A program made the position numbers and the translations under genes. Below are positions 4,039 to 21,638 of a DNA stretch of 64,000 bases, piece after piece (the first letter of the stretch is position 1; each line of letters begins with the position of its first letter). The notes beneath the pieces were generated by a model, which was given only the letters and a program-made list of their open reading frames with translations, did not search any database and had not been told where the DNA came from. The stretch comes from Candidatus Poribacteria bacterium. GTDB taxonomy: Bacteria > Poribacteria > WGA-4E > PCPOR2b. The stretch covers positions 768,001 through 832,000 of the forward strand of contig OZ242326.1 of assembly GCA_965208325.1 (NCBI GenBank). The letters run 5' to 3'.

Positions 4039-4908
4039 ATGAAGTCAATAAATACCGATTTCTACTTAGGGGATTGCTTAGATATACTCTCCGGTTTTGA
4101 CGCAAATTCATTCGATCTGATCTTAACTTCTCCTCCTTATGCTGACCGCCGATCTAAGACATATGGCGGCGTCAAACCCGATGAATATGTGGATTGGTTT
4201 CTACCACGAGCCGATGCCTTTTTTCAAGTCCTTAAATCGTCGGGTACTTTTATCTTGAACATCAAAGAAAAAGCCGTTAATGGAGAACGTCATACGTACG
4301 TCATCGAGTTGATACTAGCGATGAAAAAGCAGGGCTGGATTTGGACTGAGGAGTTTGTTTGGCATAAGAAAAACTGTTATCCCGGCAAATGGCCAAACCG
4401 GTTTAGGGACGCTTGGGAGAGATGTTTGCAGTTCAATAAATCCAAGAAGTTTAACATGTATCAAGACGCTGTCATGGTGCCGATGGGGGATTGGACGGAA
4501 AAGCGCTTGAAACATCTCAGTGAAACTGACCAGAGTCGCGATACATCGAGAGTCGGCAGCGGTTTCGGCAAAAACGTCTCAAATTGGGTAAATCGAAAAA
4601 TGGCATACCCCACGAATGTTTTGCACTTGGCGACAGAAACAGGAAATCGTAAACACAGCGCAGTATTTCCCAAGACGTTGCCTGAATGGTTTATCAAACT
4701 GTTTACAAAAGAAGGTGATTGGGTGCTAGATCCGTTCGCCGGCGCAGGTACAACGTGTCAGGTTGCTCAGGAACAGTTCAGGAATTCCACCGGCATTGAA
4801 ATCTTGCCTGAATATTATCATTTGGCAAGGGATAATATCAAGCCAACGCAGTATCTGCTATTTGAGGAGACTCAATATGAAACCCATTACACAACAGGAG
4901 ATAACTGA
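4039..4908 (+). CDS. Site-specific DNA methyltransferase, beta class (SPPY motif, probably N4-cytosine)
   Basis: TSPPY motif IV precedes VLDPFAGAGTT motif I; HSAVFP motif. Confidence 0.93.
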   Translation: MKSINTDFYLGDCLDILSGFDANSFDLILTSPPYADRRSKTYGGVKPDEYVDWFLPRADAFFQVLKSSGTFILNIKEKAVNGERHTYVIELILAMKKQGWIWTEEFVWHKKNCYPGKWPNRFRDAWERCLQFNKSKKFNMYQDAVMVPMGDWTEKRLKHLSETDQSRDTSRVGSGFGKNVSNWVNRKMAYPTNVLHLATETGNRKHSAVFPKTLPEWFIKLFTKEGDWVLDPFAGAGTTCQVAQEQFRNSTGIEILPEYYHLARDNIKPTQYLLFEETQYETHYTTGDN

Positions 4909-5620
4909 TTATGTTGAGGCGAACATTAAATCGTTTCACCAAAAACGGTTAGATAAACTCCAAGCGTTGAGACTAATGGATGTCATAAAACGAAAAAATC
5001 CATATCTATTCAAAGCGAAAAACATCAACACGGCACAAGACTTTGTAAAGACCATCCTAGATGCTTTTCTGTCCTCGCAAGAAGAAGGTATTTTTGGTGG
5101 GTTTCTGGAGGAACTTGCGATTTTCATCTGTTCAGAGGTTTATGGCGGCCAGAAATCTTCAGCAGAAGGGATTGATCTAGAATTTGAAAAAGACAGTTTA
5201 AGATTCGTTGTATCAATCAAATCCGGACCAAATTGGGGAAATAGTAGCCAGATTGCAAAACTTCGGGACAACTTCAGGAAAACTAAACAAATCCTCAGCT
5301 CGAATACATCATCGGCAAATGTCGTCGCTGTTAATGGATGCTGCTATGGACAGGATCGAAAGCCAAACAAGGGCGACTATTTTAAGCTGTGTGGACAAGA
5401 GTTTTGGGCATTTATTTCCGGAGATGACAACTTGTACATAGACATAATTGAGCCTTTAGGGCATCAAGCGAAAGAAAAAAATGAGCAGTTTTTGAATGAA
5501 TACGTGAAGGTCCTCAATAGATTTACGTTAGAGTTCCTCACCAAATTCTGCACCCCTGACGGAAATGTCTGTTGGGAAGATATTGTCAAATTTAACTCGG
5601 CAAAACCCGCAGTATCATAA
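4877..5620 (+). CDS. Type II restriction endonuclease, EcoO109I/PmeII-like family
   Basis: Probable start ATG 4877 after GAGGAG; RKNPYLF, GIDLEF..SIKSGPNWGNSSQ, GCCYG and GQEFWAFISGD motifs; overlaps the MTase gene. Confidence 0.85.
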   Translation: MKPITQQEITDYVEANIKSFHQKRLDKLQALRLMDVIKRKNPYLFKAKNINTAQDFVKTILDAFLSSQEEGIFGGFLEELAIFICSEVYGGQKSSAEGIDLEFEKDSLRFVVSIKSGPNWGNSSQIAKLRDNFRKTKQILSSNTSSANVVAVNGCCYGQDRKPNKGDYFKLCGQEFWAFISGDDNLYIDIIEPLGHQAKEKNEQFLNEYVKVLNRFTLEFLTKFCTPDGNVCWEDIVKFNSAKPAVS

Positions 5621-5717: not shown

Positions 5718-8504
5718 ATGCTGACACTACTCCAACCAATCTGGTTATTATTAATAATTCCGCTTGGCATATCGCTGTGGGTCTGGAAACCGAGTTCGAG
5801 GTTACTCTGGATTTTCCGAGTCGTAATATTAAGTCTTGTCCTGTTAGCGATGTGCGGGCTTGCCGTGGAATTGCCGAGACGTGCCGGCACCATTGTCGTT
5901 ATCGCGGACCGTAGCTTGTCGATGCCGCCCGGCAGCGAAGCTAGGCAGAAAGAGGCTATTGATTTAATACAGAGCGAGATGCCGAGCGATTCCCGCCTTG
6001 GCGTCGTCTCCTTTGGACGAGTGTCCGCGGTCGAACAGTCACCACAAAGTGGAAAGTTCGCGGGTTTTGTCAACGAAGTGAACGGCGATGCGTCGGATCT
6101 AAACGCCGCAGTTGCGCAAGCGATAGCACTCATACCGCGAGATTCGCCCGGCAGAGTGATTCTTCTGTCGGACGGCAGATGGACTGGTAACGACCCGATG
6201 GGCACAGCTGCCCACGCCGCAGCGCGAGGTATCCCCATTGATTACCGCGCCATGCGCCGGGACTCCGTAAACGATGTTGCCATCTCCCATGTAGATGCCC
6301 CCGATGTTGCAACACCCGGTGAATCGTTTATGATTGCCGCATGGATACACGCGCCGATTTCAGGAGAAATTTCATACGAGTTGTTGCGTAATAATCAACG
6401 CCTAACGGCTGGCAAGCGGAGCGTTCCGTCCGGGCTGAGCCGTCTGATTTTCCGGGACAAAGCCGCGCAGCCGGGTACTCATCAATACGCTGTGCGAATT
6501 GGGGGAAGCGAATCCGACCCGGTGCCAGAGAACAATACGGCAAAGGTCTTGGTCGGCATTCAAGGGTCTCGCCCCATTCTTCATATCACATCCACTTCCA
6601 ATTCTGGGCTGTCGAATCTGCTGAAAGCGGGCGGTTTGGACGTAGAAACCGCTCCGCCGTCCGCATACATTTGGTCGATTGATGAACTATCAGGATTTTC
6701 GGCAGTGTTGATAGAGAATGTGTTGGCAGGTGAAATTGGCTTCCACGGCATGGATAATCTAGCCGCTTGGGTCAGAGAGACTGGGTCGGGGTTCATGATG
6801 ACCGGCGGTAAACACGCCTATGGACCGGGCGGCTATTTCAAATCTCCGCTCGAGCCAATTATGCCGCTCTCCATGGAGTTGAGACGCGAACATCGGAAGC
6901 TGTCGCTCGCGATAGTGGTGGCGATGGACCGGTCGGGCAGCATGTCAATGCCGGTAGGCGGCGGTAGGACGAAAATAGATCTCGCAAATCTCGCGACAGC
7001 GGAAGTTTTTGACATGTTGTCACCGACGGATGAGTTTGGCGTAATTGCGGTTGACAGCGCCCCGCACATTATTGCCAACCTTGCTCCTGTTGACAAACTC
7101 GGCGGAACCCGGAGCAGAATCCTTCGGATTGCCTCGCAGGGCGGCGGAATCTTCGTCTACGAAGCGCTTAGCGCCGCCTCTTCAATGTTACTCCGCGCTC
7201 AAGCCGGCACGCGGCACATCATTCTGTTTGCGGACGCCGCCGATTCCGAGCAACCCGGACGCTATATAAAGTTGCTGGATGAATGTCGAAAGGCTAACAT
7301 TACTGTCAGCGTCGTAGGACTCGGAACACCGTCCGATGTCGACGCTAAACTGCTGCGTGACATCGCCCGGCGCGGCGAGGGGCGTTGTTTTTTCACCGAA
7401 GATGCCCAAGAGTTGCCGCGTCTGTTCGCTCAGGACACGTTTGTAGTGGCGCGCGGCACGTTTGTTGACGAACCTACGCCGATTAAAACCACAGGCGGGA
7501 TGGCCGCGTTGACCGGCACTCAATATCAGATTCCGTCTTCAATCGGCGGGTACAACTTATGTTACATTCGTCCCGATGCAAACCTCGCTGCCGTGACCTT
7601 GGACGAATACAACGCGCCTGTGGTAGCGGCGTGGCAGGCAGGTACTGGACGCGTGCTCTGCTATACAGGAGAAGCGGACGGGGCACACACCGGCGCAATT
7701 GCCAATTGGAATGGTATTGGAAACCTGTTCACGAGCTTAGCACGCTGGACTGCTGGAGATTCTGCCAACCTCCCCGATGGGATGTTGCTCACACAAAAGG
7801 TCAGGAACGGCGTCGGCAAAATACAACTTCATCTCGACCCGGAACGAGAGGGTGAAATGTTCAGGGCTCTACCCAGCGTGACGATACTGCGCGGCGTAGT
7901 TGGGGAAGCGCCGACCGTGAGCAAAACCAAGTTGTCATGGACATCCGCCGACTCGCTCACTGCTGATGTGCCCATACACGGCGGTGAAACAGCGCTAGCA
8001 TCCGTGGAGGTACCGGGGGCTGGAACTGTATCGCTGCCGCCGATCTGCCTGCCGTATTCACCGGAGTTTAAGCCCGCGCCGGACGAATCCGGGCTAGCGA
8101 CAATGGAACGGCTTTCCAAAACGTCCGGGGGAAAATCGAGAGTCAGCCTCGGTGGCATTTGGGACGATTTGCCGCGCAATCCCCGTCTAATAGGTCTCGC
8201 ACCGTGGTTACTAATCGCGGCGCTCATCCTTCTGCTGCTCGAAACACTCGAACGCCGTACAGGGTTGTTTTCCATGAAACGGGCGTACAGAGTTGCAGCA
8301 GCAGTTACGCAACGAATACCCCGGAAGGCGCGCCGCACATCTCGGACGCTTTCATCGTCCGTAAAAACATCGCCGCCCACGGAGCCCGAGCACGCTGAAT
8401 CGCCGCACACTTCTCCAGAACCGGAGGCTAGCGTGGAGCGGGGTGGAATGCTAGACGCCTTAACCCAAGCGCGAAGGCGTGCCAGCGGACGGACAGGGCG
8501 TTGA
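5718..8504 (+). CDS. Membrane-anchored double VWA-domain protein with glutamine amidotransferase-like middle domain
   Basis: Two MIDAS motifs (DRSLSM, DRSGSM), LLSDG, GGKHAYGPGGY; N- and C-terminal TM segments. Confidence 0.88.
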   Translation: MLTLLQPIWLLLIIPLGISLWVWKPSSRLLWIFRVVILSLVLLAMCGLAVELPRRAGTIVVIADRSLSMPPGSEARQKEAIDLIQSEMPSDSRLGVVSFGRVSAVEQSPQSGKFAGFVNEVNGDASDLNAAVAQAIALIPRDSPGRVILLSDGRWTGNDPMGTAAHAAARGIPIDYRAMRRDSVNDVAISHVDAPDVATPGESFMIAAWIHAPISGEISYELLRNNQRLTAGKRSVPSGLSRLIFRDKAAQPGTHQYAVRIGGSESDPVPENNTAKVLVGIQGSRPILHITSTSNSGLSNLLKAGGLDVETAPPSAYIWSIDELSGFSAVLIENVLAGEIGFHGMDNLAAWVRETGSGFMMTGGKHAYGPGGYFKSPLEPIMPLSMELRREHRKLSLAIVVAMDRSGSMSMPVGGGRTKIDLANLATAEVFDMLSPTDEFGVIAVDSAPHIIANLAPVDKLGGTRSRILRIASQGGGIFVYEALSAASSMLLRAQAGTRHIILFADAADSEQPGRYIKLLDECRKANITVSVVGLGTPSDVDAKLLRDIARRGEGRCFFTEDAQELPRLFAQDTFVVARGTFVDEPTPIKTTGGMAALTGTQYQIPSSIGGYNLCYIRPDANLAAVTLDEYNAPVVAAWQAGTGRVLCYTGEADGAHTGAIANWNGIGNLFTSLARWTAGDSANLPDGMLLTQKVRNGVGKIQLHLDPEREGEMFRALPSVTILRGVVGEAPTVSKTKLSWTSADSLTADVPIHGGETALASVEVPGAGTVSLPPICLPYSPEFKPAPDESGLATMERLSKTSGGKSRVSLGGIWDDLPRNPRLIGLAPWLLIAALILLLLETLERRTGLFSMKRAYRVAAAVTQRIPRKARRTSRTLSSSVKTSPPTEPEHAESPHTSPEPEASVERGGMLDALTQARRRASGRTGR

Positions 8505-8531: not shown

Positions 8532-8560
8532 TTGAATTTCTGATGTAGATGTGCTAGAAT
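8532..8560 (+). promoter_or_regulatory. Sigma70-type promoter for the UxxU gene
   Basis: TTGAAT-17 bp-TAGAAT with extended -10 TG; 25 nt upstream of ATG 8586. Confidence 0.6.
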
Positions 8561-8585
8561 TAACATCCATAACGGAGAAGCCATT

Positions 8586-9263
8586 ATGTTAATTCGATAT
8601 CTATTTTACTTACCGCTACTGGTAGCAGCTATGTACGGATGGGCGGATGTGGATGAATCAATATCCACACAGCAGCAAGCCAACCGTCCGACCTCCATAA
8701 CGCCCGCCTGAAGTGCCTGACCGGGCGAAGGTGCACCGCTTCGGGGAAGCGGGATTCAAAAAAATTGGGCAATTTCGTGGCGTTATATCCGTACAGAGTT
8801 GGACCGGCCTCGCTGGCGGACGACACTGAATTACGCGGTGGCAAATAGACTTCAACTCGGCGTCGAATTCAATCCCGCTGCACGTGAGTTCGCACCGCTC
8901 GCCAACTTGTTTCTCTTCACTGAAACCAACGTCCGACCCGCGGCTGTTATAGGAACAAGTTCAGACCGTGTCGGGTCGCCGCCAAAAGAACAGGCATACT
9001 TTTTGACAATCGCCAAGCGTCTGCCCAGCGTGCCAATCTCGGCCTATGCAACCATCAACTACTCCGAATGGGACAACGGGTTCAATTTCCCTTTCGGTGC
9101 TAGCATTGATCTCGGTAATGGCTTCACTGTGCGCGGCATGTACGACGGAGATCTACCTCACCTGATGTTGAACTACTACTTTAAAGAGTTCAGCTTAAGT
9201 CTAATGTACATAAGTATCGATCAATCGCAAAGGCCGGGCATCGCGCTTTCCTCATCATTCTAA
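8586..9263 (+). CDS. Candidate double-selenocysteine (UxxU) exported beta-barrel-like protein, 225 aa
   Basis: GGAG RBS 8574-8577, ATG 8586 in frame with track ORF 8799..9263; signal peptide MLIRYLFYLPLLVAAMYGWA; only interruptions are TGA 8709-8711 and TGA 8718-8720 (TPA-U-SA-U-PGEG); hairpin follows; ends PGIALSSSF. Confidence 0.75.
8736..8752 (+). promoter_or_regulatory. Candidate bacterial SECIS hairpin
   Basis: CCGCTTC-GGG-GAAGCGG perfect 7-bp stem with G-rich loop, 22 nt after the second UGA and 31 nt after the first. Confidence 0.55.
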
Positions 9264-9294: not shown

Positions 9295-10167
9295 ATGGAC
9301 GAGAATTTCCGCCAATTTCTCATTGACGGCGAACGCGCAGGAATGCAGTACGCACTGACTGCACCGCGCAATGTGCCCTTTGGGTTAGCCGGAAATCTAA
9401 CAGGGAAGCGTCCGGGGAGTTCACTGGAGTTTATTGACCACCGGGAATACCAACCGGGCGACGACCTGCGAAGAATTGATTGGGGCGGCTTCGCTCGAAG
9501 CGACAAATTGACGGTAAAGTTGTACCGTGACGAAGTCAACCCGCATCTAGACCTTGTCATTGATGGATCGCGCTCCATGGCACTTGAAAACTGCCCCAAA
9601 GCGCAAGCTACGCTTGGGTTAGCGGCAGTTTTTGCAACGGCGGCTGCGAATGCCGGTTACTCCCACTCCACCTGGATGGCGGGGGATGGATATCGCAGGG
9701 TGGGAAACGGCGCAGACCGACCCTCAATTTGGCAGGGGATTGACTTTGAATATCGGGGCGACCCTTCCACGTCTTTCGCCAAACTCCCGCCCTCGTGGCG
9801 TCCCTATGGGATGCGCGTGTTACTTAGCGACCTGCTCTGGCCGAGCGACCCGACCGCGGCGCTGTCTCGATTCGCTGAACGCGCCGCCGCCGTAATTCTG
9901 GTCCAAGTCTTATCGGAGGTAGACGTTAATCCCATTGAACGCGGCAACATTCGACTTGTTGATTCAGAGACCGATGATGTGCAAGAAATATTCTTGGACG
10001 CGGTTGCTGAAAAGCGGTACCGCGCCGCATTCGCACACCATCAGGAGAACTGGAATCTCGCCGCGAAACGCGCTGGAATTGTGATGACAACGGTTATGGC
10101 AGAGCGCATCCTGAGCGATTGGAGATTAGAAACGCTGGTTGCCGCTGAGGTGCTAAACACGGCATAG
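9295..10167 (+). CDS. DUF58 domain protein (MoxR/VWA-associated)
   Basis: GSSLEFIDHREYQPGDDLRRIDW and IDGSRSM motifs. Confidence 0.92.
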   Translation: MDENFRQFLIDGERAGMQYALTAPRNVPFGLAGNLTGKRPGSSLEFIDHREYQPGDDLRRIDWGGFARSDKLTVKLYRDEVNPHLDLVIDGSRSMALENCPKAQATLGLAAVFATAAANAGYSHSTWMAGDGYRRVGNGADRPSIWQGIDFEYRGDPSTSFAKLPPSWRPYGMRVLLSDLLWPSDPTAALSRFAERAAAVILVQVLSEVDVNPIERGNIRLVDSETDDVQEIFLDAVAEKRYRAAFAHHQENWNLAAKRAGIVMTTVMAERILSDWRLETLVAAEVLNTA

Positions 10168-10467: not shown

Positions 10468-13359
10468 ATGCAACAATCCAAGTTAAAAAATATTTTGTTA
10501 TTAATCGTGGTTTTGACGGTAGCTGGGCTGATGGCGCCGGTACAATCCGCCTCCCAAACCATGACCGATTCAAATGCTCAATCCAGTGACGAATTCGACG
10601 ATTCGGACATGGATGCCGCGTCCGATACCGGCGATGCCATGGAGGACATGACCGATCAGTCGTCAGAAATCATTGAACTGGAACAGGTATCCGTCACAGC
10701 GTCCCGGCGCAGGGAAAAGGTGCTTGAAGCACCGGCGTCAGTTGCCGTAGTGGGGTCTACCCAAATCAAAGACCGAGTCACGTCAACCCTGTCCGAGCAC
10801 GTAAAGTCCGTGCGCGGCGTAGACCTTGCTAAGACAGGATTGGGAGCGTCGCATGTCGTTGTGCGCGGCTTCAATAACGTCTTCTCAGGGACGCTGCTGT
10901 CGCTCGTTGACAACCGGATTGCCCGCGTTCCTTCGCTGCGTTTGAACGCTTACACGCTCATCCCGACATCGAACGAGGATATTGAACAGATTGAAGTCGT
11001 ATCGGGTCCTGGCGCTGCGCTTTACGGCCCTAACAGCGCCAACGGCGTCATGCACATCCTCACGAAATCTCCTTTCAACTCGCAAGGAACCACCGTCAGC
11101 ATCGGCGGCGGCGAGCGGAGCGTGCTCCTGGGATCGCTTCGGCACGCTGGCGTAATCAATGAAAATATCGGCTACAAGTTTTCTGCCAACGCATTCCGAG
11201 GTGATGACTGGGAAGAGGGACGCGCAGAAGCTGATTTAAACGGCGTAAAACCGCCCGAGTTTGATACTTACAGAGCTGGCGGTGACTTTCGCGTTGACTA
11301 CCGCCCGACTAGCGACCTAACGACAATTGTTGCAAGTGGATTCACCCAAACGACGGGTTTGGAAATGACTGGCATCGGCGCCGGGCAAGCCAAGAACTGG
11401 ACTTACGGCTATGTCCAGGGCCGCCTAATCTACAAAGACCTTTTCGCGCAGGCCTTTTGGAACCGCAGTGACGCCGGGGATACCTACACGCTGCGGGCAG
11501 GTGACCCAATTATCGACAATTCCGATTTGTATGTTGGGCAGATACAACACGGATACAGCTTGAGTGAGAATCAACGGTTCACGTATGGCTTGGATTTATT
11601 GCTGACCCGCCCTGATACTGAAGGCTCAATCAACGGACGCAACGAAGACAATGACAACGTCAACGAGGTCGGCGCTTACTTGCAGTCGGAAACAAAAATT
11701 CTTCCCGAGTTAAAGTTCATCGCCGCGGCGAGGGTTGATGACCACAACCACCTCAATGACCTAGTGCTTTCGCCGCGTGCAGCACTCGCCCTTCAGCCAA
11801 ACGATAACCACAACATCAGACTCACTTACAACCGCGCCTTCAGCACACCGTCTTCCTCGAACCTGTTCCTTGATGTCGTTTCGATTCCTGACGCGTTCGG
11901 TATTGGCGCGGCGTTCCAGCCCGCATTGGGATTCAATCCAGCAATCGATATTCGTGCACAGGGGGTTAGCAGCGAAACCGGATTTACCTTCAAGAGAAGC
12001 GCGGATGGTCGGCCAGAATTCCGTTCACCGTTCTCAGCGGTTGCAAATCTTCCTGCTGACCAATACATTCCGCTTGACGACCCAGTCTTTACCAACGTTA
12101 TGTGGAATGTCGGCAGATCCGCTATCTTGAGTGAAGCGCAGCCGCAGTTTGAAGCCGGCTTAAAGCAAGCGTTTACTCCTGAAGCACTGCCGCAATTACT
12201 GCAAAGCCAGTCGCCGGCGCAGATTGAGGGCATCGTGTCAACGCTGCCGACAGAAGTGACGCAGCTTTTACCGCCAGCATTTCAACAGCCGGGCGCCATT
12301 GCGGCGCTGCCGCCCGAAATACTTCAACCGCTAATTCCACAAATTCTCGGATCGCTACCCGCCCCAGTGGTTGAAGGACTCACTGCTTCTCTCATCGCCG
12401 ACCTGTCAGCCGGTTTTGCAAACGCCGTACCGGCACAGGTTTCAGGCGTGAAAAACTCCCTGCTTGCGCTAAATCCGGAGACAGAGGAATTTGAGCCGAT
12501 TGCGGACGTAAACGACGTTGACCCCATTACTCCAACGATTACACAAACATATGAAATGGGTTACAAAGGGATTCTCATGGATAAAATCGCGTTCTCCGCG
12601 GACGTGTATCACACAAGAATTAACGATTTCATCGGTCCCTTGGTGGTTGAAACGCCCAACGTCTTCTTGGACGCAAATACTTTAGGCGCTTCCATTGCCC
12701 AACAACTCACCGAAACATTGAGCGATCCGAAGAACGCATTGCTCAACCAGGCGCTGCTCGCATTCGACTCGCCGGCGCAAGGTGGAAATGGGGATGGTTC
12801 AGCCGTCGATGAGTTGACGAAGTTGTTCGTCGCCGGCACCGATAACAACGGCGCCGCGTTCATTCCCTTTGGCACCGTGTCCCCCGATCAGGCAGGTGAC
12901 CCGAACGCAGTGATGCTTACCTATCGTAACTACGGCGACATCTCGCTTAACGGAGCCGACCTAAGCCTGACTTACTATCTCAACCATAGTCTGAGCGTGA
13001 CCGGGAATTACTCGTTCGTCAGCAAGGACCTTTTTGAGACCGATATTCGCAACATCGCCCTAAACGCGCCAAAGAATAAGTTCGGCACGAACGTCCAATA
13101 CCTCAACCCCAATTTAGGTCTTGGCGCTGGCGTCGCGATGCGCTATGTCGCTGGATTCCCGATGAACTCCGGTGTCTATATCGGTGACGTTGAGTCGTAT
13201 TACACCATTGATGTTAGTGCGGGTTACGATTTACCGTTCGGCCCCAAACCCCGCCTGTCGCTAACCGTACAAAACCTTCTGGACAAAATGCACCAGCAAT
13301 TTGTCGGTGCCCCGTACATTGGCCGTCTGTCAATGTTGCGCTTGACACAGACATTTTAA
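10468..13359 (+). CDS. TonB-dependent outer-membrane receptor
   Basis: AAGGAG RBS; signal peptide; TonB-box-like EQVSVTASRR; plug motif IEQIEVVSGPGAALYG; C-terminal VQNLLD...GR...RLTQTF. Confidence 0.95.
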   Translation: MQQSKLKNILLLIVVLTVAGLMAPVQSASQTMTDSNAQSSDEFDDSDMDAASDTGDAMEDMTDQSSEIIELEQVSVTASRRREKVLEAPASVAVVGSTQIKDRVTSTLSEHVKSVRGVDLAKTGLGASHVVVRGFNNVFSGTLLSLVDNRIARVPSLRLNAYTLIPTSNEDIEQIEVVSGPGAALYGPNSANGVMHILTKSPFNSQGTTVSIGGGERSVLLGSLRHAGVINENIGYKFSANAFRGDDWEEGRAEADLNGVKPPEFDTYRAGGDFRVDYRPTSDLTTIVASGFTQTTGLEMTGIGAGQAKNWTYGYVQGRLIYKDLFAQAFWNRSDAGDTYTLRAGDPIIDNSDLYVGQIQHGYSLSENQRFTYGLDLLLTRPDTEGSINGRNEDNDNVNEVGAYLQSETKILPELKFIAAARVDDHNHLNDLVLSPRAALALQPNDNHNIRLTYNRAFSTPSSSNLFLDVVSIPDAFGIGAAFQPALGFNPAIDIRAQGVSSETGFTFKRSADGRPEFRSPFSAVANLPADQYIPLDDPVFTNVMWNVGRSAILSEAQPQFEAGLKQAFTPEALPQLLQSQSPAQIEGIVSTLPTEVTQLLPPAFQQPGAIAALPPEILQPLIPQILGSLPAPVVEGLTASLIADLSAGFANAVPAQVSGVKNSLLALNPETEEFEPIADVNDVDPITPTITQTYEMGYKGILMDKIAFSADVYHTRINDFIGPLVVETPNVFLDANTLGASIAQQLTETLSDPKNALLNQALLAFDSPAQGGNGDGSAVDELTKLFVAGTDNNGAAFIPFGTVSPDQAGDPNAVMLTYRNYGDISLNGADLSLTYYLNHSLSVTGNYSFVSKDLFETDIRNIALNAPKNKFGTNVQYLNPNLGLGAGVAMRYVAGFPMNSGVYIGDVESYYTIDVSAGYDLPFGPKPRLSLTVQNLLDKMHQQFVGAPYIGRLSMLRLTQTF

Positions 13360-13778: not shown

Positions 13779-16700
13779 TTGAAAAAATTTGTCCTGATTG
13801 CACTCGCCACCCTCATCCTTTCACAAGTCAACACTACGCGAAGTACCACTGACCACGCCTCGCACGAGCCCATACAATCTGCGCTACAGTCAAAGCGTTT
13901 CAATGATGCGGTACACCTCATTGATACCGCATTGACGGCATCAGAGAATCAACCTGACTATCTGCTCTATCTTAAGGGGCTTGCGCTGTTCCATAATGGG
14001 GATTACCGGAACGCAATTGGGACGTGCGGCCAGGTCATACAGGATTACCCTGATTCCACTTGGTTGAGGAAAGCGGCGTTTCTTCAAGCCAAGAGTCATC
14101 TCAAACTGAAGGAATTTAAGCAGGCTGAAGCAATCTACAGCAAAGAGGTTAGTCGGCTTCTCTCGTCCAGACGCAAATCGGAAATTGCCCAAATTTACAT
14201 TCAGCTTGCCGAAACCTTCGCGCAAAAACCCAATGACGCAGATCTCGATGCCCCCCAGCCGAACTACCAGAAAGCGTACGAACTGTATCAAAAGGTATTG
14301 ACGCTAGAGATTGACGCTAACCTACGCGAAACGGCCGCCTTCCAACTCGGACGCATGATGCAGTTGCAGGAGAATTACGCACAAGCCGTTGTTGACTACG
14401 AAGCCTACCTTACACAATTTGATCCCAGTTTTCAGCGCCCGCCCGCTTTGCCAATGCCTTCAAAGAAGAGCAAAACGCTTGATGGCCGACGCTATCATGC
14501 CCGTTACCATCTTGCGGAATGCCAGATAGCGTTGAATCAGCACCTACAGGCGCGATTGACACTTGAGGACATGTTAAAATTGGCTGATGTTGGAAGCAAG
14601 GCACTATTACCTCTCGCCAAAGACGCTCGCTTCTTGTTGACCCGGACCTACCGTTTCCCGGCGCCCAACTCCAACGAGGAGTTGGAATTAGGCGTACAAT
14701 CCGCCAGAAGGTTTCAGGAGCAGTTTCCTCGTGACTTGCGCTCAATGACGCTAGCGCACGAAATCGCTGAAGCATATCGGGCGCGGCATCGAAGCGAGGA
14801 AGCGCTCGCCGCCTACCAAGATGTTATCGACAAAAAGAGCTTCAAAGTAACCCAAAAGAAGTGGCAAATTTCAAATCTCAACAACCAAGATTACCATTAC
14901 CTCCGTACTTCCGCCGCATTTCAAATCGGAAACATTCTGTTCGAACAGCGAAAATATAACCATGCAATTGAAGCGTGGAATAGATACATTCGAGAATTTC
15001 CCAACGGACCTCAATGGACCGACGCCCAACAGGGAATTGTTAACGCCGAATTCCAAATTGGTGTAACGCTCCTCGCCGCGGAAAAACACGAAGAAGCCGT
15101 GAATGCGTTCGATGCCTTCCAAGCAAAACACCCGCTGGATGAACGAGTGCGGCAGATAATGTTTATTTATGGCCAAATTCACGCTCACAAATCCGAGCAT
15201 CAGCTTGCAATTGCCGAGTGGGAAAAGCTCGTGAGAAAATTCCCGAACACTGAAGAATCATCGCTAGCGCTCTTTCGCATCGGGCAGACCTACGAAATTA
15301 AATTGGGAGATCTGGAAAATGCGCTAGAATCTTACCGAAGGCTAACCTGGGGAAGCTGGCACCCTCATGCGCAAGAGGTAATTCGCCAGATGACGGAAAA
15401 AAGCCTTCAACTTGTCACACCGCGCACTTTCCGCACGAATGAACCGCCTTACGTACACGTGTCGCTTCGCAATATTGAATCCCTCACGGTGAATCTTTAC
15501 AAGCTCAATCTTGAAGCCTACTGGCGCAAGATGCACGAAGTGAAAGGCGTGGAGGATCTCGATCTTGGGTTGATTGAGCCGAACAAAACTTGGCAATACA
15601 ATGTGCCTGAATACGAGAAGCACAAAAGCTTTGAGTGCGAAATCAACATCCCGTTTGCCGGACCCGGCGTTTACGCGGTACAACTCGGCGATGAGTCGCT
15701 CGAATCAACCACACTCCTCATTCGCAGCGATATTGAGACTATCACCAAGACATCCCGCCGCGAGGTACTTGTATTCGTGCAAAATATGCTGAACGGAGAA
15801 GTGGTCGCCGATGCTAAGGTGCTTGTAAGCGACGGCTCAAGCGTAATTTTCGAAGGACGCACTGGAGCGGACGGTGTACTCCATGCAACTGAACGCGGCA
15901 TTTTGGATTACGCGTCAGTAGAGAACCAACTTAAGGATGCGAGTCGGGTGGCGGCATTCGTCGTCAAGGGTGGACACGCCGCCGCAGACGGGTTAGACAT
16001 TTCAGGGCTTGGCTTCAGCAAAGGCTTGACGCCGCGCGGCTATATCTACACCGACCGGCCCGCATACCGACCGCGAGAAAGCGTTTCATTGCGCGGCATA
16101 ATCCGCGATGTTAGCGATGGCGCCTACGTGGTACCGGACGGCGCACCATTTAACGTCTCGGTCATTGATGCTCGGGGACGCCAAATCCATAAAGAGGAGG
16201 TCACACTCTCTCAGTTTGGCGGGTTTGATACGCAGTTGCAGCTTGACAATGCCGCCTCTGTCGGCGAATACCGCATCCGTGTGGCACAATTCGACCCAGA
16301 TACAAAGCTAGATATCCCAAGCCACATATTCACAGGAAACTTCCAAGTTCAGCGATTCCAACTCGAAAAGGTACAGTTGCTGCTCGATTTTCCGCGCAGC
16401 GTCTACTTTCGCGGTGAACAGGTGGATGCTACCTTTACGGCACGATACTATTACGGCCAGCCGGTGAAGAACGCAAAAATTCAATACAAACTTCCCGACG
16501 GCCGGAGCTATACTGAAACCGCTGATAATCGGGGAATACTGAAGGTCAATTTCGATACGGCATCTATGCAACCCGGCAAACCGCTTCATTTCAGCGGGAC
16601 GGTTCTGGGTGAGAATGTTAGCGTTAAAACCTCTGTGACGCTTGCGCATCTCGGATATTCAATTTCGGTGCAACCTGACGCTAAACTTGTGCTCTCCGGT

Positions 16701-19700
16701 GAACCGTTCCACGTAACAGTTCACACTAAAGGAGCTGATGGGCGTCCGGTTGGCAAGAAATTAACCGTCAAGGTGGTAAAAAAGCAGAGCAGCAGTCCCA
16801 TTTCGCCAGTGATGTCTCAGGTTCCTTGGATTAATAGAGAAGGTGTGTTCCGTTCTGCCGAAATTATCATCCAAGAACACAGCCTGCAGACAGATTCCCT
16901 AACTGGTGCCGGTACAATTCAGTTGGCCCTAAACACCGGCGGCGTTTTTGAAGTCCGCGCCAGTGGTACCGATCGGTTCGGTCAAACTGTCGTCGGCTCT
17001 CGGAGCGTCACTATCTCCGACGACGGCGATAAAACCAAACTTCGCATTTTCGCCCAGGGTACAAAGACGCAGGTGGGCGCCTCCGAAACGCTTCGCCTTC
17101 ACTCGCGATTGAAACCCGTACACACTCTGATCACATACGAAGGTGAAGTCATTATCGGATATGAAGTCCGCGTGCTGAAACCGGGAAATAATCGGCTTCA
17201 GTTCACAATCGGGCACCAACACTTCCCGGATTTTTACATTGGGGTAGCGGCAATTGAAGATCGAAGCCTACACACCGCAAGGAAACGCTTTACCGTCGAA
17301 AGGCAACTAAATTTATCCGTGACTTGGACGGATACCGATCCGATTCACGGCTCCAACCAGACGCTTCCCGGCTATATGCCCGGTGCGGCCGCGAAAATCC
17401 AAGTCCGCGCTACTGATCAACTTGGTCAGCCGGTCAGGGCTGAATTTTCACTCGCGTTGGTGGACGAAGCGCTGTTCGCCATATACAAAGATGGCGTGAT
17501 GAATATTAACGATTTCTTCCAGAAAGGGCTCCGGCGCCGTGCAGCCATGCGCACCGCTTCAAGCTGTACCTTCCAATACATGCCAACTACACGGCCTGTA
17601 GTTCAGGAGGCTTTAGCTGAGGCACGACGGCTCTTAATTGAAGCGGAGGCGCTTAGTCTTGAGGACATTGATTCTGGGAAAACGGCAGAAAGAGTATTTT
17701 CAAGGAAACGGCGCGTGCGCCCATCTGTTCTTAAGCGGGCAATGCGCGAAAGACGCCCTAATGTGCCTTCTTATGATGAACCAAAGGTACGAGAAGAATC
17801 TACCTACGCCGGTTTTTGGATAGGAATCGTCATCACAGACGATGCTGGCTTGGCAATTGTAACCATCCCCATGCCGGAAAAGACGACGAAATGGCGGCTG
17901 ACTGCGCGTGGATCCACCGTTGATACACTCGTTGGACAAGTCAGTGTGAACGCCGTGACGCGGAAAGATCTCTTCCTCAACGTGCGCACCCCGGCATTCG
18001 TTACCGAAGGCGATGAGCTGCGATTAGGCGTCCGACTCCATAACATGACCGACTACAGAGGAGAAGCCGACGTTCAAATCACGATGTCCGTTGATGAATC
18101 ACAGCCCGTTTACCGAGACCACAAAAGAACTACGATTACGGCCCAAGATGCGGCAGAGATAATCTTCGACAGGTTCACTATCCCCTCTGGAAAACTGCAC
18201 ACCAGTTCACAACCAAGCCAAATTACCATTGAGGCGATGGCAACTGCGGGCTCATTGAGCGATGGAATTCAGCGCACAATCCCGGTTCGCCCGTGGGGTC
18301 TGGAATACACCGATACGCAGAGCGGAACGGCGGCTAGCAATAAAACAGTTTACGTGCAACTCCCGTCCGATTTGCGCTACACGCGGAAAGGACTTTCAGT
18401 CAATATTGGTCCGAGCGTATCGCGGCTAATTTATGATCTCGCACTCGACCACTATCCCCGGCCATACCAGATTGGGTCTGTAAGACGACCGCTCATCATT
18501 CCCAGTGATGCCGGCAGCGACCTACTCGCGGTGGCGTCCGCCATCGACTATCAAAAACAAGTGGACGGCAATCCGACCGATAACCGCAGGTTGCTGACTC
18601 GGGCGATGACGCTCGTCAATCGACTCGTAACGACACAAAATGAAGACGGCGGCTGGAGTCTGGTTCGTGGTGCGGCAGGGAGCAACGGCCGTGTATCAGC
18701 CCGCAACCTTTGGGCGTTGACAACGACACGCGGCAGCGGCGTTGCGGTTAACGACCAGACGATTGCCAACGCTGTACATTTCCTCAAAACAGCTTTCGCC
18801 CAGACCGATAAAAACGGCGAAGACACACAGGCGTCAACCCTCCATGCCCTCTCGACGCTAGGTGACGTGGATTTCGCGCACGCAAACCGCCTGTATCGGC
18901 GTCGGAATCAGTTGAGCAATGTTTCGTTGGCATACGCTGCATTGGTCTTTGTTAATCTCAACCGCTTGGAGATTGCGGGCGAGATACTTGATATATTGGA
19001 ACGCCGCGGTCTATTGCCCGATGAAAAAAGGAACTCAAAGGCTTCTACTTCGTACGCAGCCAGCGGTCAAGTGGAGACCGTGGCTTTGGCGCTGTTAAGC
19101 ATGCAAGCAGTCCGCCCAAGTTCTGCGTGGGTAAAGGATGCGGTGGATTATCTAATTGATCAACGCCGTTACTACGGTTATTCGCCGTACGCCGCTAAGG
19201 GCGCCGTCGTCGCCGCACTAGCAACCTACTATCAGGCGGCGCAATATGCGGCAGACGACTACAGACTAATCTTGCTCGTGAACGGTGAACCGCTCGAAAC
19301 AATTGCAATTCAGAAGGATTCTATTAACCGCCTAATTCACGTGCCCGCCGCGCAAATTCTCGACGGACAGAACCGCGTCGAGATGCAAATCGAAGGGCAG
19401 GGGACTTATACGTACCTTGTTACAATCAGCGGGTTTTCTCAAGACGTGCCGAACTGGGTCGGCGCTGAACCGGAGATGGGCGGAAGTTTGAAAAACACAC
19501 GAATTAACCGCCGTTACCTTCACCCACCGCTTGAATATCGGGGCAAGCCCATCGGCGTGCAGAGTACGTCAGGAATTACTCAATTGGAAGCCGGGGCAAA
19601 GATGCAAGTCTCTGTCAACATCGTGCATGGCATTGGCGCGCTCACGCCCGACCACAGGTCTAAGGGCGCGTACGTCGTTGTGGATGAATTTTTCCCCGCC

Positions 19701-21638
19701 GGGACAACGGTCATTGACAGTACTGTTAATGGCGATTTTCAACACTACGATGTCGGAGACGGTGTAATCCGTTTCTACTATGGGCCCCGCGCTGCCTTTA
19801 GGCACTACAGCTATCAGCTAGTCAGCTATGCGCCAGGCGAATACCGCGTCGCCCCAACTGTAATGCGCGACATTCAAAGCCCCGATAATATGCGGCTGGG
19901 ACCAGCGGCTTCGCTAACCGTGCTAGGACCAGGCGAAAAATCCAAAGACACCTATGAGATGAATAACGCAGAAAACTTTGCACTAGGGAAAGCCTATTTC
20001 GACGACGGGAAGTATGGCGATGCGCGCCCATTGCTCGAAACACTATACAAAGACAGTCCAAAATTCGACGCAAAAGAGACCGCGAGGATGCTTTTGTGGA
20101 TTTACACGACAGACGAACACTACGGTGCGAGGCATGTCGTCCAAGCTTTTGAGGGTTCTCGCTACCACTATCCAGATCTCGAAATTCCTTTTGACAGGAT
20201 TCAGGTAGTCAGCTCGGCATACCGTGATATTGGAGAATTTGAACGCGCAACCATGGTTCATCGCTCCGCAATCGATTCCAGCTTTGCTCGGGACGCGAAT
20301 GTTAGCGCGGCTCTTCAGGACCAAGGTGAATTCTTGCGTTCGATCGAATTCATTGAAGATTTGTGGCGTGAATACCCTGATACTCCTACGACCATTCCCG
20401 CCTACTTCGCAATCGCACAGTCTCTCTATGCGAGTAAAGATGCCGCGGATGGTAGAGCAAAACCAGCGCCCAAAATTCAAACCCTTAATCGAACGGTGGA
20501 GATTCTGTCTCAATTCTTGACGCTGTACCCGACGAATCCGCTAGCCGACGACGCCGCGTTTTCGCTCGCGAACGCATATATGGACCTGGAGGATTTTCAG
20601 AATGTAGTGCAACTTTGCCGCTTGAATCAGGCGTACCGCCCGGACAGCGTGCTGTTGAGCAGTTTTCAATATATGGAAGCGCTCGCGCTCTTTGCACTGA
20701 ACCAATATGACAAAGCCATTAAAGCAGCGACGCTTGTGGCATCAAGTGAAAGCGAAGACCGTGATTTTGCGCGGTACATCGTCGGGCAAATTTACCATGC
20801 GCAGGGCAAACCGGCACAAGCGATTGACTGGTACAGCCGTGTCAGGCAAATCTACCCCGATGCGGATGAATCCATCGCTCATTTTGAAGCGCAGCAGATT
20901 ACCATCCCCGAAGTCACAATTAAGCGCCCGAATACTGATGTGATTGTAGCGATGAATCATCGAAACATCAAGTCGGCAGAAATTCAGGTGTACCGTATTG
21001 ATCTGATGAATCTCTATCTGCGCGAGAAAAATCTCAGCCGTGTAACTCAAGTACATTTAGCGGGCATAGAACCGGAGGTCAGCCAAACCGTTGAGTTGAG
21101 TGACGAGAAAAATTACAAAGAGGCAACCCGCGACATCTCTCTACCAATTGCAGAAGATGGGGCATACCTCGTCATCTGCCGCGGCGGCAATCTGTCCGCG
21201 AGCGGTTTGATTTTGATTACGCCGTTGGAGATTGAGGTACAGGAGGGCGCCGTGAGCGGCCGTGTACGCGTCGTTGTGCGGGACGCGCTTTCAGGCAAAT
21301 ATCAATCGAGCGTCCATGTCAAAGCGGTAGGTTCTGCAGGCGGGCGATTTATCTCAGGCGAAACAGATTTCCGCGGCATTTTCATCGCCGACGGTATACA
21401 CGGCACGACTACTGTCATCGCCCGCCAAGGCACGAACCGTTATGCGTTCCATCGCGGCAATTTGTGGCTTGGTTCCCCACCCTCCGATTCAGAATCGCCC
21501 CCAATCCCAAGGGCAGCAACAGACTATCGTCAGCATCTCAAACATAAAAATCAAGCAATCCAAACGTCAAACATTGAGAGGTTTGACCGTCTGCGACGAG
21601 CACCCAGCAACGGAGTCCAGCTCCAGCACACTTATTAA
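13779..21638 (+). CDS. Giant secreted TPR-repeat plus alpha-2-macroglobulin-like (MG2/A2M) protein, 2619 aa
   Basis: Signal peptide; TPR-like helical repeats at both ends; YIYTDRPAYRP (MG2), SLALVDEALF, MPEKTTKWRLTARG, QNEDGGWS and PGEYRVAP motifs. Confidence 0.9.
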   Translation: MKKFVLIALATLILSQVNTTRSTTDHASHEPIQSALQSKRFNDAVHLIDTALTASENQPDYLLYLKGLALFHNGDYRNAIGTCGQVIQDYPDSTWLRKAAFLQAKSHLKLKEFKQAEAIYSKEVSRLLSSRRKSEIAQIYIQLAETFAQKPNDADLDAPQPNYQKAYELYQKVLTLEIDANLRETAAFQLGRMMQLQENYAQAVVDYEAYLTQFDPSFQRPPALPMPSKKSKTLDGRRYHARYHLAECQIALNQHLQARLTLEDMLKLADVGSKALLPLAKDARFLLTRTYRFPAPNSNEELELGVQSARRFQEQFPRDLRSMTLAHEIAEAYRARHRSEEALAAYQDVIDKKSFKVTQKKWQISNLNNQDYHYLRTSAAFQIGNILFEQRKYNHAIEAWNRYIREFPNGPQWTDAQQGIVNAEFQIGVTLLAAEKHEEAVNAFDAFQAKHPLDERVRQIMFIYGQIHAHKSEHQLAIAEWEKLVRKFPNTEESSLALFRIGQTYEIKLGDLENALESYRRLTWGSWHPHAQEVIRQMTEKSLQLVTPRTFRTNEPPYVHVSLRNIESLTVNLYKLNLEAYWRKMHEVKGVEDLDLGLIEPNKTWQYNVPEYEKHKSFECEINIPFAGPGVYAVQLGDESLESTTLLIRSDIETITKTSRREVLVFVQNMLNGEVVADAKVLVSDGSSVIFEGRTGADGVLHATERGILDYASVENQLKDASRVAAFVVKGGHAAADGLDISGLGFSKGLTPRGYIYTDRPAYRPRESVSLRGIIRDVSDGAYVVPDGAPFNVSVIDARGRQIHKEEVTLSQFGGFDTQLQLDNAASVGEYRIRVAQFDPDTKLDIPSHIFTGNFQVQRFQLEKVQLLLDFPRSVYFRGEQVDATFTARYYYGQPVKNAKIQYKLPDGRSYTETADNRGILKVNFDTASMQPGKPLHFSGTVLGENVSVKTSVTLAHLGYSISVQPDAKLVLSGEPFHVTVHTKGADGRPVGKKLTVKVVKKQSSSPISPVMSQVPWINREGVFRSAEIIIQEHSLQTDSLTGAGTIQLALNTGGVFEVRASGTDRFGQTVVGSRSVTISDDGDKTKLRIFAQGTKTQVGASETLRLHSRLKPVHTLITYEGEVIIGYEVRVLKPGNNRLQFTIGHQHFPDFYIGVAAIEDRSLHTARKRFTVERQLNLSVTWTDTDPIHGSNQTLPGYMPGAAAKIQVRATDQLGQPVRAEFSLALVDEALFAIYKDGVMNINDFFQKGLRRRAAMRTASSCTFQYMPTTRPVVQEALAEARRLLIEAEALSLEDIDSGKTAERVFSRKRRVRPSVLKRAMRERRPNVPSYDEPKVREESTYAGFWIGIVITDDAGLAIVTIPMPEKTTKWRLTARGSTVDTLVGQVSVNAVTRKDLFLNVRTPAFVTEGDELRLGVRLHNMTDYRGEADVQITMSVDESQPVYRDHKRTTITAQDAAEIIFDRFTIPSGKLHTSSQPSQITIEAMATAGSLSDGIQRTIPVRPWGLEYTDTQSGTAASNKTVYVQLPSDLRYTRKGLSVNIGPSVSRLIYDLALDHYPRPYQIGSVRRPLIIPSDAGSDLLAVASAIDYQKQVDGNPTDNRRLLTRAMTLVNRLVTTQNEDGGWSLVRGAAGSNGRVSARNLWALTTTRGSGVAVNDQTIANAVHFLKTAFAQTDKNGEDTQASTLHALSTLGDVDFAHANRLYRRRNQLSNVSLAYAALVFVNLNRLEIAGEILDILERRGLLPDEKRNSKASTSYAASGQVETVALALLSMQAVRPSSAWVKDAVDYLIDQRRYYGYSPYAAKGAVVAALATYYQAAQYAADDYRLILLVNGEPLETIAIQKDSINRLIHVPAAQILDGQNRVEMQIEGQGTYTYLVTISGFSQDVPNWVGAEPEMGGSLKNTRINRRYLHPPLEYRGKPIGVQSTSGITQLEAGAKMQVSVNIVHGIGALTPDHRSKGAYVVVDEFFPAGTTVIDSTVNGDFQHYDVGDGVIRFYYGPRAAFRHYSYQLVSYAPGEYRVAPTVMRDIQSPDNMRLGPAASLTVLGPGEKSKDTYEMNNAENFALGKAYFDDGKYGDARPLLETLYKDSPKFDAKETARMLLWIYTTDEHYGARHVVQAFEGSRYHYPDLEIPFDRIQVVSSAYRDIGEFERATMVHRSAIDSSFARDANVSAALQDQGEFLRSIEFIEDLWREYPDTPTTIPAYFAIAQSLYASKDAADGRAKPAPKIQTLNRTVEILSQFLTLYPTNPLADDAAFSLANAYMDLEDFQNVVQLCRLNQAYRPDSVLLSSFQYMEALALFALNQYDKAIKAATLVASSESEDRDFARYIVGQIYHAQGKPAQAIDWYSRVRQIYPDADESIAHFEAQQITIPEVTIKRPNTDVIVAMNHRNIKSAEIQVYRIDLMNLYLREKNLSRVTQVHLAGIEPEVSQTVELSDEKNYKEATRDISLPIAEDGAYLVICRGGNLSASGLILITPLEIEVQEGAVSGRVRVVVRDALSGKYQSSVHVKAVGSAGGRFISGETDFRGIFIADGIHGTTTVIARQGTNRYAFHRGNLWLGSPPSDSESPPIPRAATDYRQHLKHKNQAIQTSNIERFDRLRRAPSNGVQLQHTY

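Follow-up and report, generated by a model that had tools for sequence, protein, structure and literature searches.

A conserved Poribacteria gene with two in-frame TGA codons probably encodes a UxxU selenoprotein with an outer-membrane barrel

One conserved reading frame occupies positions 8586 to 9263 of a 64,000-nucleotide stretch of the forward strand of a Candidatus Poribacteria genome (assembly GCA_965208325.1, contig OZ242326.1; the whole stretch is called the window here). The frame is interrupted only by two TGA codons, at 8709-8711 and 8718-8720, and ends with TAA at 9261-9263. Read through, it gives a product of 225 amino acids with a signal-peptide-like N-terminus, the sequence T-P-A-U42-S-A-U45-P-G-E-G (U, selenocysteine) and a C-terminal domain whose final residue is Phe. 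Under translation table 11, the region is divided into an open reading frame (ORF) of 41 amino acids (8586-8711) and another of 154 amino acids starting with TTG at 8799; no in-frame ATG, GTG or TTG exists between 8721 and 8798. An earlier interpretation made without database searches (the sequence-only reading) had described a frame from ATG 8586 with a GGAG site, an extended -10 promoter, only two TGA interruptions and a terminal Phe, and all of these were found in the sequence. As argued below, the locus is very probably one gene for an exported selenoprotein of the UxxU type, in which the two selenocysteines (Sec) are three codons apart.

All features described here are on the forward (+) strand. 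Upstream of the gene, a sigma-70-like promoter was recognized at 8532-8560 by match to the consensus only (9 of 12 positions), with TTGAAT at 8532-8537, a 17-nt spacer, and the extended -10 element TGcTAGAAT at 8552-8560. This site is among 4 found by the promoter scan in the region, compared to a mean of 0.8 in shuffled sequences. The GGAG ribosome-binding site (8574-8577) stands 8 nt upstream of the ATG at 8586-8588, and most Poribacteria homologs have ATG at the equivalent position, preceded by a purine-rich sequence. The full coding sequence (8586-9263) would consist of 225 codons plus TAA, with UGA1 (8709-8711) and UGA2 (8718-8720) read as Sec42 and Sec45. Residues 1-20 (8586-8645) form a putative signal peptide, whose cleavage site was placed by eye after G-W-A and before D21. 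Residues 21-60 (8646-8765) form a flexible mature N-terminal arm carrying the nearly invariant sequence P-T/A-U-S-A-U-P-G-E-G-A-P-L-R-G-S-G, and residues 61-224 (8766-9257) form a predicted transmembrane beta-barrel of 12 strands, followed by Phe225. Invariant residues among the homologs are P40, U42, U45, P46-G-E-G49, P51-L-R53, R-W-R (76-78), a G-x-S-S-D-R-x-G segment and F225. All homologs have, again as judged by eye, a hydrophobic N-terminal stretch preceded by a basic residue, and a small-x-small site. The upstream region, whose lack of conservation the sequence-only reading had named as refuting, is thus conserved, in frame and signal-peptide-like in all of them.

The TGA pair is conserved over a wide phylogenetic range. 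Among 61 genomes of the same order, whose members are titled Candidatus Poribacteria, a match was present in 37, and all 35 matches spanning the motif have exactly two TGA codons, the remaining 3 rows being fragments of the C-terminal part. The 39 loci L012-L050 (37 unique) all read TGA-NNN-NNN-TGA-CCN-GGN-GAR-GG, and the same TGA arrangement exists in homologs from an Acidobacteriota metagenome-assembled genome (MAG; 52% identity) and an Armatimonadaceae MAG of high G+C (46%). In a scan of JGI metagenomes, the pair was found in 62 of 63 loci, the remaining locus not extending to the motif region. The gene occurs in 26 of 301 Acidobacteriota genomes, with two TGA codons in every row covering the motif (the unpublished G111 is included in this count), and 48 of 301 Armatimonadota genomes have a match, with two TGA codons in most (at least 45 rows). 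Altogether, 102 unique homologs from three or more phyla share the pair, three codons apart, at identities of 35-91% that fall to about 35% in the most distant ones. The family thus extends over Poribacteria, Acidobacteriota and Armatimonadota, and also includes further metagenome loci. One Acidobacteriota homolog (G228:C17:299977-300604) gave two overlapping matches and possibly contains a frameshift or is a broken copy.

This distribution bears on the simplest alternative, in which a gene for an outer-membrane protein is decaying, its TGA codons come from nonsense mutation or sequencing error, and it yields a truncated product or none. Table 11 does give two separate ORFs, and the public annotation lists only the C-terminal piece of 141-155 amino acids, the NCBI copy of the protein being a truncation of 141. 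However, the pair is kept in the 102 homologs, and in the window it is identical in contigs of three other studies (X5, X6, X7), one of them from a strain that differs at 23 of 901 bases; the earlier concern that the codons might be assembly errors is thereby removed. A single contaminating sequence is excluded by identities of 35-91%. Moreover, purifying selection acts on both sides of the TGA codons, with no further stop or frameshift. Compared with L013 (91% identical), codons 42-71, which precede the first possible restart and include no start codon, show 7 synonymous and 0 non-synonymous changes (ratio of non-synonymous to synonymous change, pN/pS, 0.00), and compared with L014 (78% identical) their pN/pS is 0.20; the barrel part gives 0.15-0.17 in the same two comparisons. 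In the codons CCN GGN GAR GGN, the first and second positions are fixed and the third positions vary freely. The signal-peptide part counts against the selenoprotein reading and by itself lends it no support, as its pN/pS is 1.10 against L013, which is nearly neutral, and 0.55 in the second comparison. Fast evolution is common in signal peptides, and this N-terminus is nonetheless open, in frame, hydrophobic and provided with a start codon in every homolog. The probability that the gene is broken is therefore negligible.

The DNA around the motif is also strongly conserved. Runs X1, X5 and X7 contain short contigs from co-resident lineages that match only the 65-nt stretch 8694-8758, which holds the UxxU codons and the putative selenocysteine insertion sequence (SECIS), with divergent flanks; here the depth spikes up to about 250.

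Such conservation among co-resident lineages would also suit a second alternative, two genes in place of one, in which a short secreted leader peptide ends at TGA 8709, a separate barrel begins at TTG 8799, and a regulatory RNA lies between them. TTG 8799 is a possible start, and alternative RNA stems do exist in the interval. Nevertheless, a barrel translated from 8799 would have neither a signal peptide nor the first predicted strand (residues 61-68), and TTG 8799 is not conserved, gene callers having picked different starts across the homologs. The synonymous-only pattern in codons 42-71 indicates translation of the interval itself, and in homologs with Cys at the two positions the region is an uninterrupted ORF with the arm fused to upstream periplasmic domains. 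Two genes are consequently very improbable, and a single gene with both UGA codons recoded is almost certain. A double frameshift was also considered and rejected: the +1 frame is plausible over 8700-8830, but the homologs retain frame 0 with TGA.

The genome encodes the apparatus for inserting Sec. The genes selA and selB and the tRNA-Sec gene are side by side at C1:2041509-2044983, and selD is present with an in-frame TGA of its own, so that selA, selB, selC and selD, which the sequence-only reading had named as the machinery to look for, are all there. ARAGORN reported 49 tRNAs, including one tRNA-SeC (tca), one ordinary tRNA-Cys of 75 nt (gca) and one tRNA-Trp (cca); the tRNA-Sec is the only tRNA with a UCA anticodon in the genome. 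Matches below threshold to the tRNA-Sec model, checked at six of the 12 loci listed, were ordinary Ser, Leu, Trp or Cys tRNAs. The selA gene is above cut-off in 60 of the 61 related genomes, and also in the genomes holding the Acidobacteriota and Armatimonadota homologs L044 and L045. Its co-occurrence is uninformative within the order, since it is found in genomes with and without the gene. TGA terminates 387 of 1170 long open frames in this genome, which indicates that the code is unchanged. Two further genes with in-frame TGA, both of thioredoxin fold, were seen at G000:C1:4184429-4184770 and C1:4409456-4409755. Their TGA codons lie in UxxC motifs (T-S-U-G-P-C and Q-W-U-P-S-C), each with a small G-loop hairpin 17-21 nt downstream, and the two genes are probably additional selenoproteins of this genome.

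A third alternative is that the UGA codons are read as a standard amino acid, either Trp, through a near-cognate tRNA or an alternative code, or Cys, through a SelB-dependent tRNA of the tRNA(ReC) type, giving a WxxW or CxxC arm. Some public proteins appear to support Trp. The word-indexed protein search returned 12 relatives, of which 10 begin downstream of the TGA codons and the 2 longer ones (P0009 and P0012) have W at both positions; a third public cluster, P0102, was likewise seen with Trp at both. The N-termini of P0009 and P0012, which derive from contigs of 1-2 kb, are identical to the translations of loci L047 and L049, where both codons are TGA. Hence P0009 and P0012 were ruled out as true Trp homologs, and we infer that the Trp residues in P0009, P0012 and P0102 are artefacts of table-4 gene calls over TGA. 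Such entries could mislead comparisons of Sec, Cys and Trp at these sites. TGG was found at the Sec positions in none of the homolog loci examined. For Cys, tRNA(ReC)-like tRNAs that decode UGA as Cys with a SECIS are described as enriched in genomes with UXXU hydrogenases, including Armatimonadota, in the portion of PMC13582414 consulted, and Cys decoding is possible in other genomes. In the present genome, where TGA ends a third of the long frames, the tRNA set shows only one tRNA-SeC beside ordinary tRNA-Cys and tRNA-Trp, with the limit that ARAGORN may miss unusual tRNA shapes. Decoding as a standard amino acid is thus quite unlikely, and Sec at both UGA codons in this organism is highly probable from the sequence comparisons.

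The Cys-containing homologs point in the same direction. The exhaustive profile search gave 230 cluster representatives, most of which begin at profile positions 53-73, past the TGA codons; together with the 141-residue NCBI copy, this bears out the expectation that gene callers would truncate the protein. Seven representatives (P0036, P0047, P0062, P0090, P0048, P0035 and P0029) read P-T-C-A-G-C-A-G-E-A-R, and in the MAFFT alignment both Cys of the CxxC homologs fall on the two Sec columns. In 9 Armatimonadota CxxC loci, these residues are encoded by TGT or TGC. P0021, with C-V-G-W, is a possible CxxU form. Accordingly, the homologs align TGA or Cys at codons 42 and 45 with no genuine Trp homolog, as the double-Sec proposal had anticipated. 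Five Armatimonadota genomes (G645, G554, G652, G482 and G387) contain a YHS-fused CxxC form and a UxxU form together, coexisting rather than replacing one another.

Downstream of the TGA pair, positions 8736-8752 can form a hairpin (hairpin c), CCGCUUC-GGG-GAAGCGG, with a 7-bp stem (8736-8742/8746-8752) and a dG of -9.1 kcal/mol. Its loop begins 22 nt past UGA2 and 31 nt past UGA1, and it satisfies the constraints for bacterial SECIS elements given in the legend of Fig. 2 of PMC13188914. Among subfamilies, the stems differ completely while the pairing position and loop type are kept: CCGCUUC-GGG-GAAGCGG, CCACUUC/GAAGUGG, GCGAUCC-GGG-GGAUCGC, GUUCCUCG-GUU-CGGGGAAC, GUUUCCUG-AGUU-CAGGAGAC, GCCGCUCC-GUG-GGAGCGGC and GUUGCUCG-GUG-CGAGCAAC. 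In the 'S-U-P-L-U' subfamily, the stem is interrupted and the loop, CGUGA, lies 17-18 nt past UGA2. Under a strict test requiring a contiguous stem, 63 of 84 unique family sequences have the hairpin, compared to 7 of 387 true TGA stops of the genome and 36 of 1000 random positions. Under a test based on minimum free energy (MFE), the counts are 90 of 102, 15 of 387 and 91 of 1000, respectively. The hairpin also follows the Sec form, for all 11 Armatimonadota Sec-form loci have one with dG <= -8.9 kcal/mol at 21-22 nt, whereas none of the 9 Cys-form loci reaches -7.5 kcal/mol. The other TGA genes of the genome, selD and the two thioredoxin-fold genes, have stems of 5-7 bp with GGG, GGU or GUU loops 17-21 nt past the UGA; the selD hairpin was read from sequence, the computed fold showing a different one, and the other two appear in the computed folds.

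Several observations weigh against hairpin c as the SECIS. The tests fail for 21 of 84 (strict) and 12 of 102 (MFE-based) family sequences. Within Poribacteria, 98.5% of the cells are paired with small compensatory variation (G-C to A-U, U-A to C-G), but the covariation is modest, 13 of 500 shuffles matching the observed score; the sequences there are close, and since the peptide encoded over the hairpin hardly varies, part of the hairpin's conservation could come from constraint on the protein. The distance of 31 nt from UGA1 to the loop exceeds the 17-21 nt of the other Sec genes of the genome, although it is within the general range of 16-37 nt. Additionally, the local fold of 8700-8775 is not more stable than shuffles (z = -0.48), and the RNAalifold consensus favours another stem, which includes UGA1. 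Taking both sides together, 8736-8752 is probably a SECIS-type hairpin that directs Sec insertion.

The competing structures involve the central strand CCGCUUCGG, which pairs in three ways: within hairpin c, with an upstream CGAAG (hairpin b), and with CCUGAAGYG, which includes UGA1 (stem a). Hairpin b (8726-8743; CGAAG/CUUCG) has an 8-nt loop beginning with G, 19 nt past UGA1, and shares the CUUC(G) strand with hairpin c. Of its cells 95.8% are paired, with no double-sided covariation. Stem a (8707-8745) is an alternative long-range pairing of CCUGAAGUG, which has UGA1 inside, with CGCUUCGGG, and competes with hairpins b and c; 97.1% of its cells are paired and 2 pairs show double changes, but L044 and L045 do not keep the pairing. 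A proximal hairpin 16-24 nt past UGA1 with dG <= -4 was found in 71 of 102 family sequences and 56 of 1000 random positions, the family sequences being related and G+C-rich. In three divergent subfamilies, the 3' strand of the proximal hairpin overlaps the 5' strand of the distal one. These overlaps suggest, as a tentative and rather unlikely possibility, that two strand-sharing hairpins decode the UGA codons one after the other. The proximal hairpin, 16-19 nt past UGA1, would be used for the first Sec; advance of the ribosome by 9 nt would then open it and free the shared strand for the distal hairpin, 17-22 nt past UGA2. The RNA would in this way reset the SelB spacing for the second Sec during translation. 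For the two UGA codons of UXXU hydrogenases, a single SECIS is proposed in the portion of PMC13582414 consulted.

The structure of the protein was predicted with AlphaFold2 (AF2) on an alignment of 17 sequences, with an overall predicted local distance difference test (pLDDT) of 73 and a predicted TM-score (pTM) of 0.71. The model shows a helix at residues 2-17, an arm of low confidence to about residue 60, and twelve strands over 61-224, the first at residues 61-68. A 12-strand barrel is thus what the model predicts for the part that the sequence-only reading had called a beta-barrel. The top Foldseek matches are all outer-membrane barrels, namely FapF, KdgM, NanC and designed barrels of 10 or 12 strands (E = 1e-4 to 4e-3; TM-score 0.44-0.52 by query and 0.43-0.65 by target; identity 8-14%), and the C-terminal Phe is invariant in the homologs. 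Less favourable to the prediction are a barrel pLDDT of only 72-89, the low pLDDT of the arm at residues 17-33 and about 55 at 31-50, by which its placement is of low confidence, and a match to Pfam OMP_b-brl (PF13505) of only 13.7 bits (E = 0.073), below the gathering threshold of 28.7. The KdgM/NanC porin family gave no Pfam match at E <= 1, its likeness being one of fold at 8-13% identity, and no Pfam thioredoxin fold or HMA domain was matched in the protein. In NCBIfam, including NF041115 and TIGR02605, no family was matched at E <= 1 by P0001 or P0009, and fused homologs gave only thioredoxin-type matches, limited to the N-terminal domain and all below cut-off. On the strength of the model and its fold matches, the product is likely an outer-membrane barrel. 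In the AF2 model, the UxxU motif is on the low-confidence, presumably disordered arm, outside any thioredoxin fold.

The gene in the window is flanked by a gene for a double-vWA protein of 928 amino acids with N-terminal membrane segments (5718-8504) and one for a DUF58 protein (9295-10167), a neighbourhood of the Bat/MoxR type. This vWA/DUF58 adjacency is limited to the genus, with DUF58 also found in one other lineage (L048). More informative contexts exist in other phyla. The Cys forms have one or two YHS domains fused at their N-terminus. The gene that follows in L044 and L045 abuts or overlaps the stop codon and encodes a secreted protein with YHS and a TlpA-like redoxin. In the survey of neighbours by Pfam, which scanned 32 of 118 candidate neighbour ORFs, a YHS and AhpC-TSA/Redoxin fusion was encoded in 11 of the 15 directly downstream same-strand ORFs scanned at metagenome loci. 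L109 is followed by a P-type ATPase with YHS and HMBD domains, and another metagenome locus has a redoxin upstream. Many Acidobacteriota members are single ORFs comprising a signal peptide, a Cys-rich module, a TlpA/ResA-like thioredoxin, a His-rich linker, the UxxU motif and the barrel. Six such fusions (L130, L132, L133, L142, L143 and L147) measure about 490-570 amino acids, and the linker is His-rich in relatives such as L136 and L138. Their Cys-rich N-terminal module has a conserved Cys cluster, CxxCW or CCxxCW followed by EADR, and matched no Pfam family.

The modules added on the N-terminal side of the arm are of periplasmic types, so that the arm itself would be periplasmic. A thiol reductase, YHS and poly-His beside the Sec pair suggest soft-metal capture or transfer at a site that needs reduction. 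By this analogy, a metal or redox site on the arm is modestly favoured, with copper as the best guess for the ligand. Within Poribacteria, the points against this function are that no conserved neighbour was found and that queries with P0164 and PF04945 found no YHS-thioredoxin fusion in this genome, only thioredoxin domains and one weak YHS match; the functional inference is for this reason borrowed from other phyla. No RNA-seq is listed among the public runs that contain this stretch. The sole YHS-type match of the genome, a weak one of 24 bits and under the cut-off, is at L127 1285-1959 (G000:C1:3258743-3259417). It lies in a secreted or membrane-anchored protein of 224 amino acids that also contains a His-rich stretch, and this protein could replace the missing YHS-thioredoxin partner.

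The protein may also be a UxxU selenoprotein with no metal role, acting as a periplasmic or outer-membrane redox catalyst (e.g., a peroxide, polysulfide or disulfide reductase) or as a switch responding to selenium availability, in which the UGA pair would let the channel be produced only under ample selenium. Most of the catalogued selenoproteins are redox enzymes according to the parts of PMC13188914 consulted. The commonest partner is a thiol:disulfide reductase of the TlpA/ResA/AhpC-TSA type, and two consecutive UGA codons would be expected to lower the yield when Sec-tRNA is scarce. On the other hand, YHS domains, His-rich linkers right before UxxU and the neighbouring heavy-metal P-type ATPase indicate metal binding, and the motif is on a disordered arm instead of a thioredoxin fold. 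A purely non-metal role is possible but less likely. TlpA-type systems reduce the Cys pairs of copper-binding proteins, and the metal and redox roles are not exclusive. The earlier guess of redox gating or soft-metal capture is in keeping with the YHS, His-rich and TlpA-like modules fused or adjacent in other phyla, while its diselenide and the identity of the metal remain suggestions.

Other genes of the window were also noted. Directly upstream of the vWA gene, a type II restriction-modification pair is encoded by overlapping ORFs at 4039-5620, one for an N6/N4 DNA methylase (PF01555) and one for a restriction endonuclease of the EcoO109I type (PF14511). Further downstream, after a TonB-dependent receptor at 10468-13359, an ORF of 2619 amino acids (13779-21638) contains many TPR repeats and alpha-2-macroglobulin domains (MG2, A2M, A2M_BRD).

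Comparison with known systems shows in which respects the protein would be new. Table 1 of a 2026 review (PMC13188914) contains 119 prokaryotic selenoprotein families. Its UxxU entries comprise Prx-like proteins, a metal-binding protein resembling HMA (NF041115) and a member of the FmdB family. Outer-membrane proteins are represented there by a barrel of the MtrB/PioB type and a TonB-dependent receptor, with one Sec each. Like the present protein, the known UxxU selenoproteins have a Sec pair two residues apart, CxxC in Cys homologs, a SECIS in the coding region, and likely redox or soft-metal chemistry, as far as described in the consulted parts of PMC13188914 and PMC2398784. However, they are soluble proteins of thioredoxin-fold, HMA-like or zinc-ribbon type, and in SelL and other Prx-like proteins UxxU is at the CxxC position of the thioredoxin fold; here, the motif is on the disordered arm of a predicted outer-membrane barrel. 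The known outer-membrane Sec barrels share the Gram-negative beta-barrel location in the same part of PMC13188914, but they are large and have a single Sec, in contrast to a barrel of 165 residues and 12 strands with two Sec on an N-terminal arm, which matches neither of their models. KdgM (4fqe, 4pr7), NanC (2wjq) and FapF (5o68) are alike in predicted fold, and FapF also has an N-terminal extension (plug) before the barrel. None of them has a Sec or CxxC arm, and with identities of 8-14% the likeness is at the level of fold and from a model of moderate confidence.

The TlpA-ScoI/CoxB system of Bradyrhizobium is reportedly a periplasmic system for copper-site maturation. Together with YHS copper proteins, it resembles the homologs of other phyla in pairing a TlpA-like thioredoxin with a Cys- or Sec-pair site and YHS. 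Its client is a Sco or CuA domain, whereas the presumed client here is the Sec-bearing arm of an outer-membrane barrel, and no such partner lies near the Poribacteria gene. UXXU-type Group 4 [NiFeSe] hydrogenases, which also have two UGA codons three codons apart, occur in Acidobacteriota, Armatimonadota and Poribacteria according to the portion of PMC13582414 consulted. They are unrelated, being Ni-binding enzyme subunits of the cytoplasm or membrane, and have in common with this gene the spacing of the UGA codons and the question of one SECIS. No description of a UxxU outer-membrane barrel family was found in the openly accessible literature, subscription journals being outside the search. 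Given no NCBIfam or Pfam model, no entry among the 119 families and no literature description, the family would be an uncatalogued one, and from its sequence features we class the protein as a bacterial selenoprotein of the Sec-UGA/SECIS kind with a new architecture and location.

The computed evidence supports the conserved frame, the recoding of both UGA codons, the hairpin, the Sec machinery, the Cys homologs, the barrel fold and the associations with other domains and neighbours. Sec insertion itself, arm topology, diselenide chemistry, ligand identity and the number of hairpins used by the two UGA codons are the steps that we infer in the following explanation. The mRNA would probably start from the gene's own sigma-70-type promoter and be translated from ATG 8586. 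SelB and Sec-tRNA(Sec) would insert Sec at UGA 8709 and UGA 8718, directed by a SECIS stem-loop in the downstream coding sequence. After removal of the signal peptide, the small 12-strand barrel would be inserted into the outer membrane, with the Sec-x-x-Sec arm of about 40 residues hanging in the periplasm or reaching into the pore. Most likely, the two selenols would switch reversibly between diselenide and diselenol, making a site that holds a soft metal, copper being the first candidate, or that passes on reducing equivalents. The UxxU site of other phyla would be serviced by a TlpA-like periplasmic thioredoxin and YHS or His-rich metal-binding modules, and the Poribacteria gene would be the minimal stand-alone form. 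A fuller picture, a minimal stand-alone member of an uncatalogued and widespread family of outer-membrane channels with a diselenol arm that captures copper-type soft metals and with two strand-sharing SECIS hairpins, is doubtful when all of its parts are taken together.

Selenoproteins outside the cytoplasm are rare, and in almost every catalogued bacterial family one Sec is set in a soluble redox fold. Because the database forms of this family are truncated or mistranslated with W, it is missed by surveys based on annotated proteins or on Cys-containing queries taken from known families. The gene is also a natural system in which to examine the bacterial decoding of two UGA codons only three codons apart. 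If the explanation given here is true, it would add a new selenoprotein family, place selenium chemistry in a part of the cell new to it, and link selenium to metal handling in the cell envelope.

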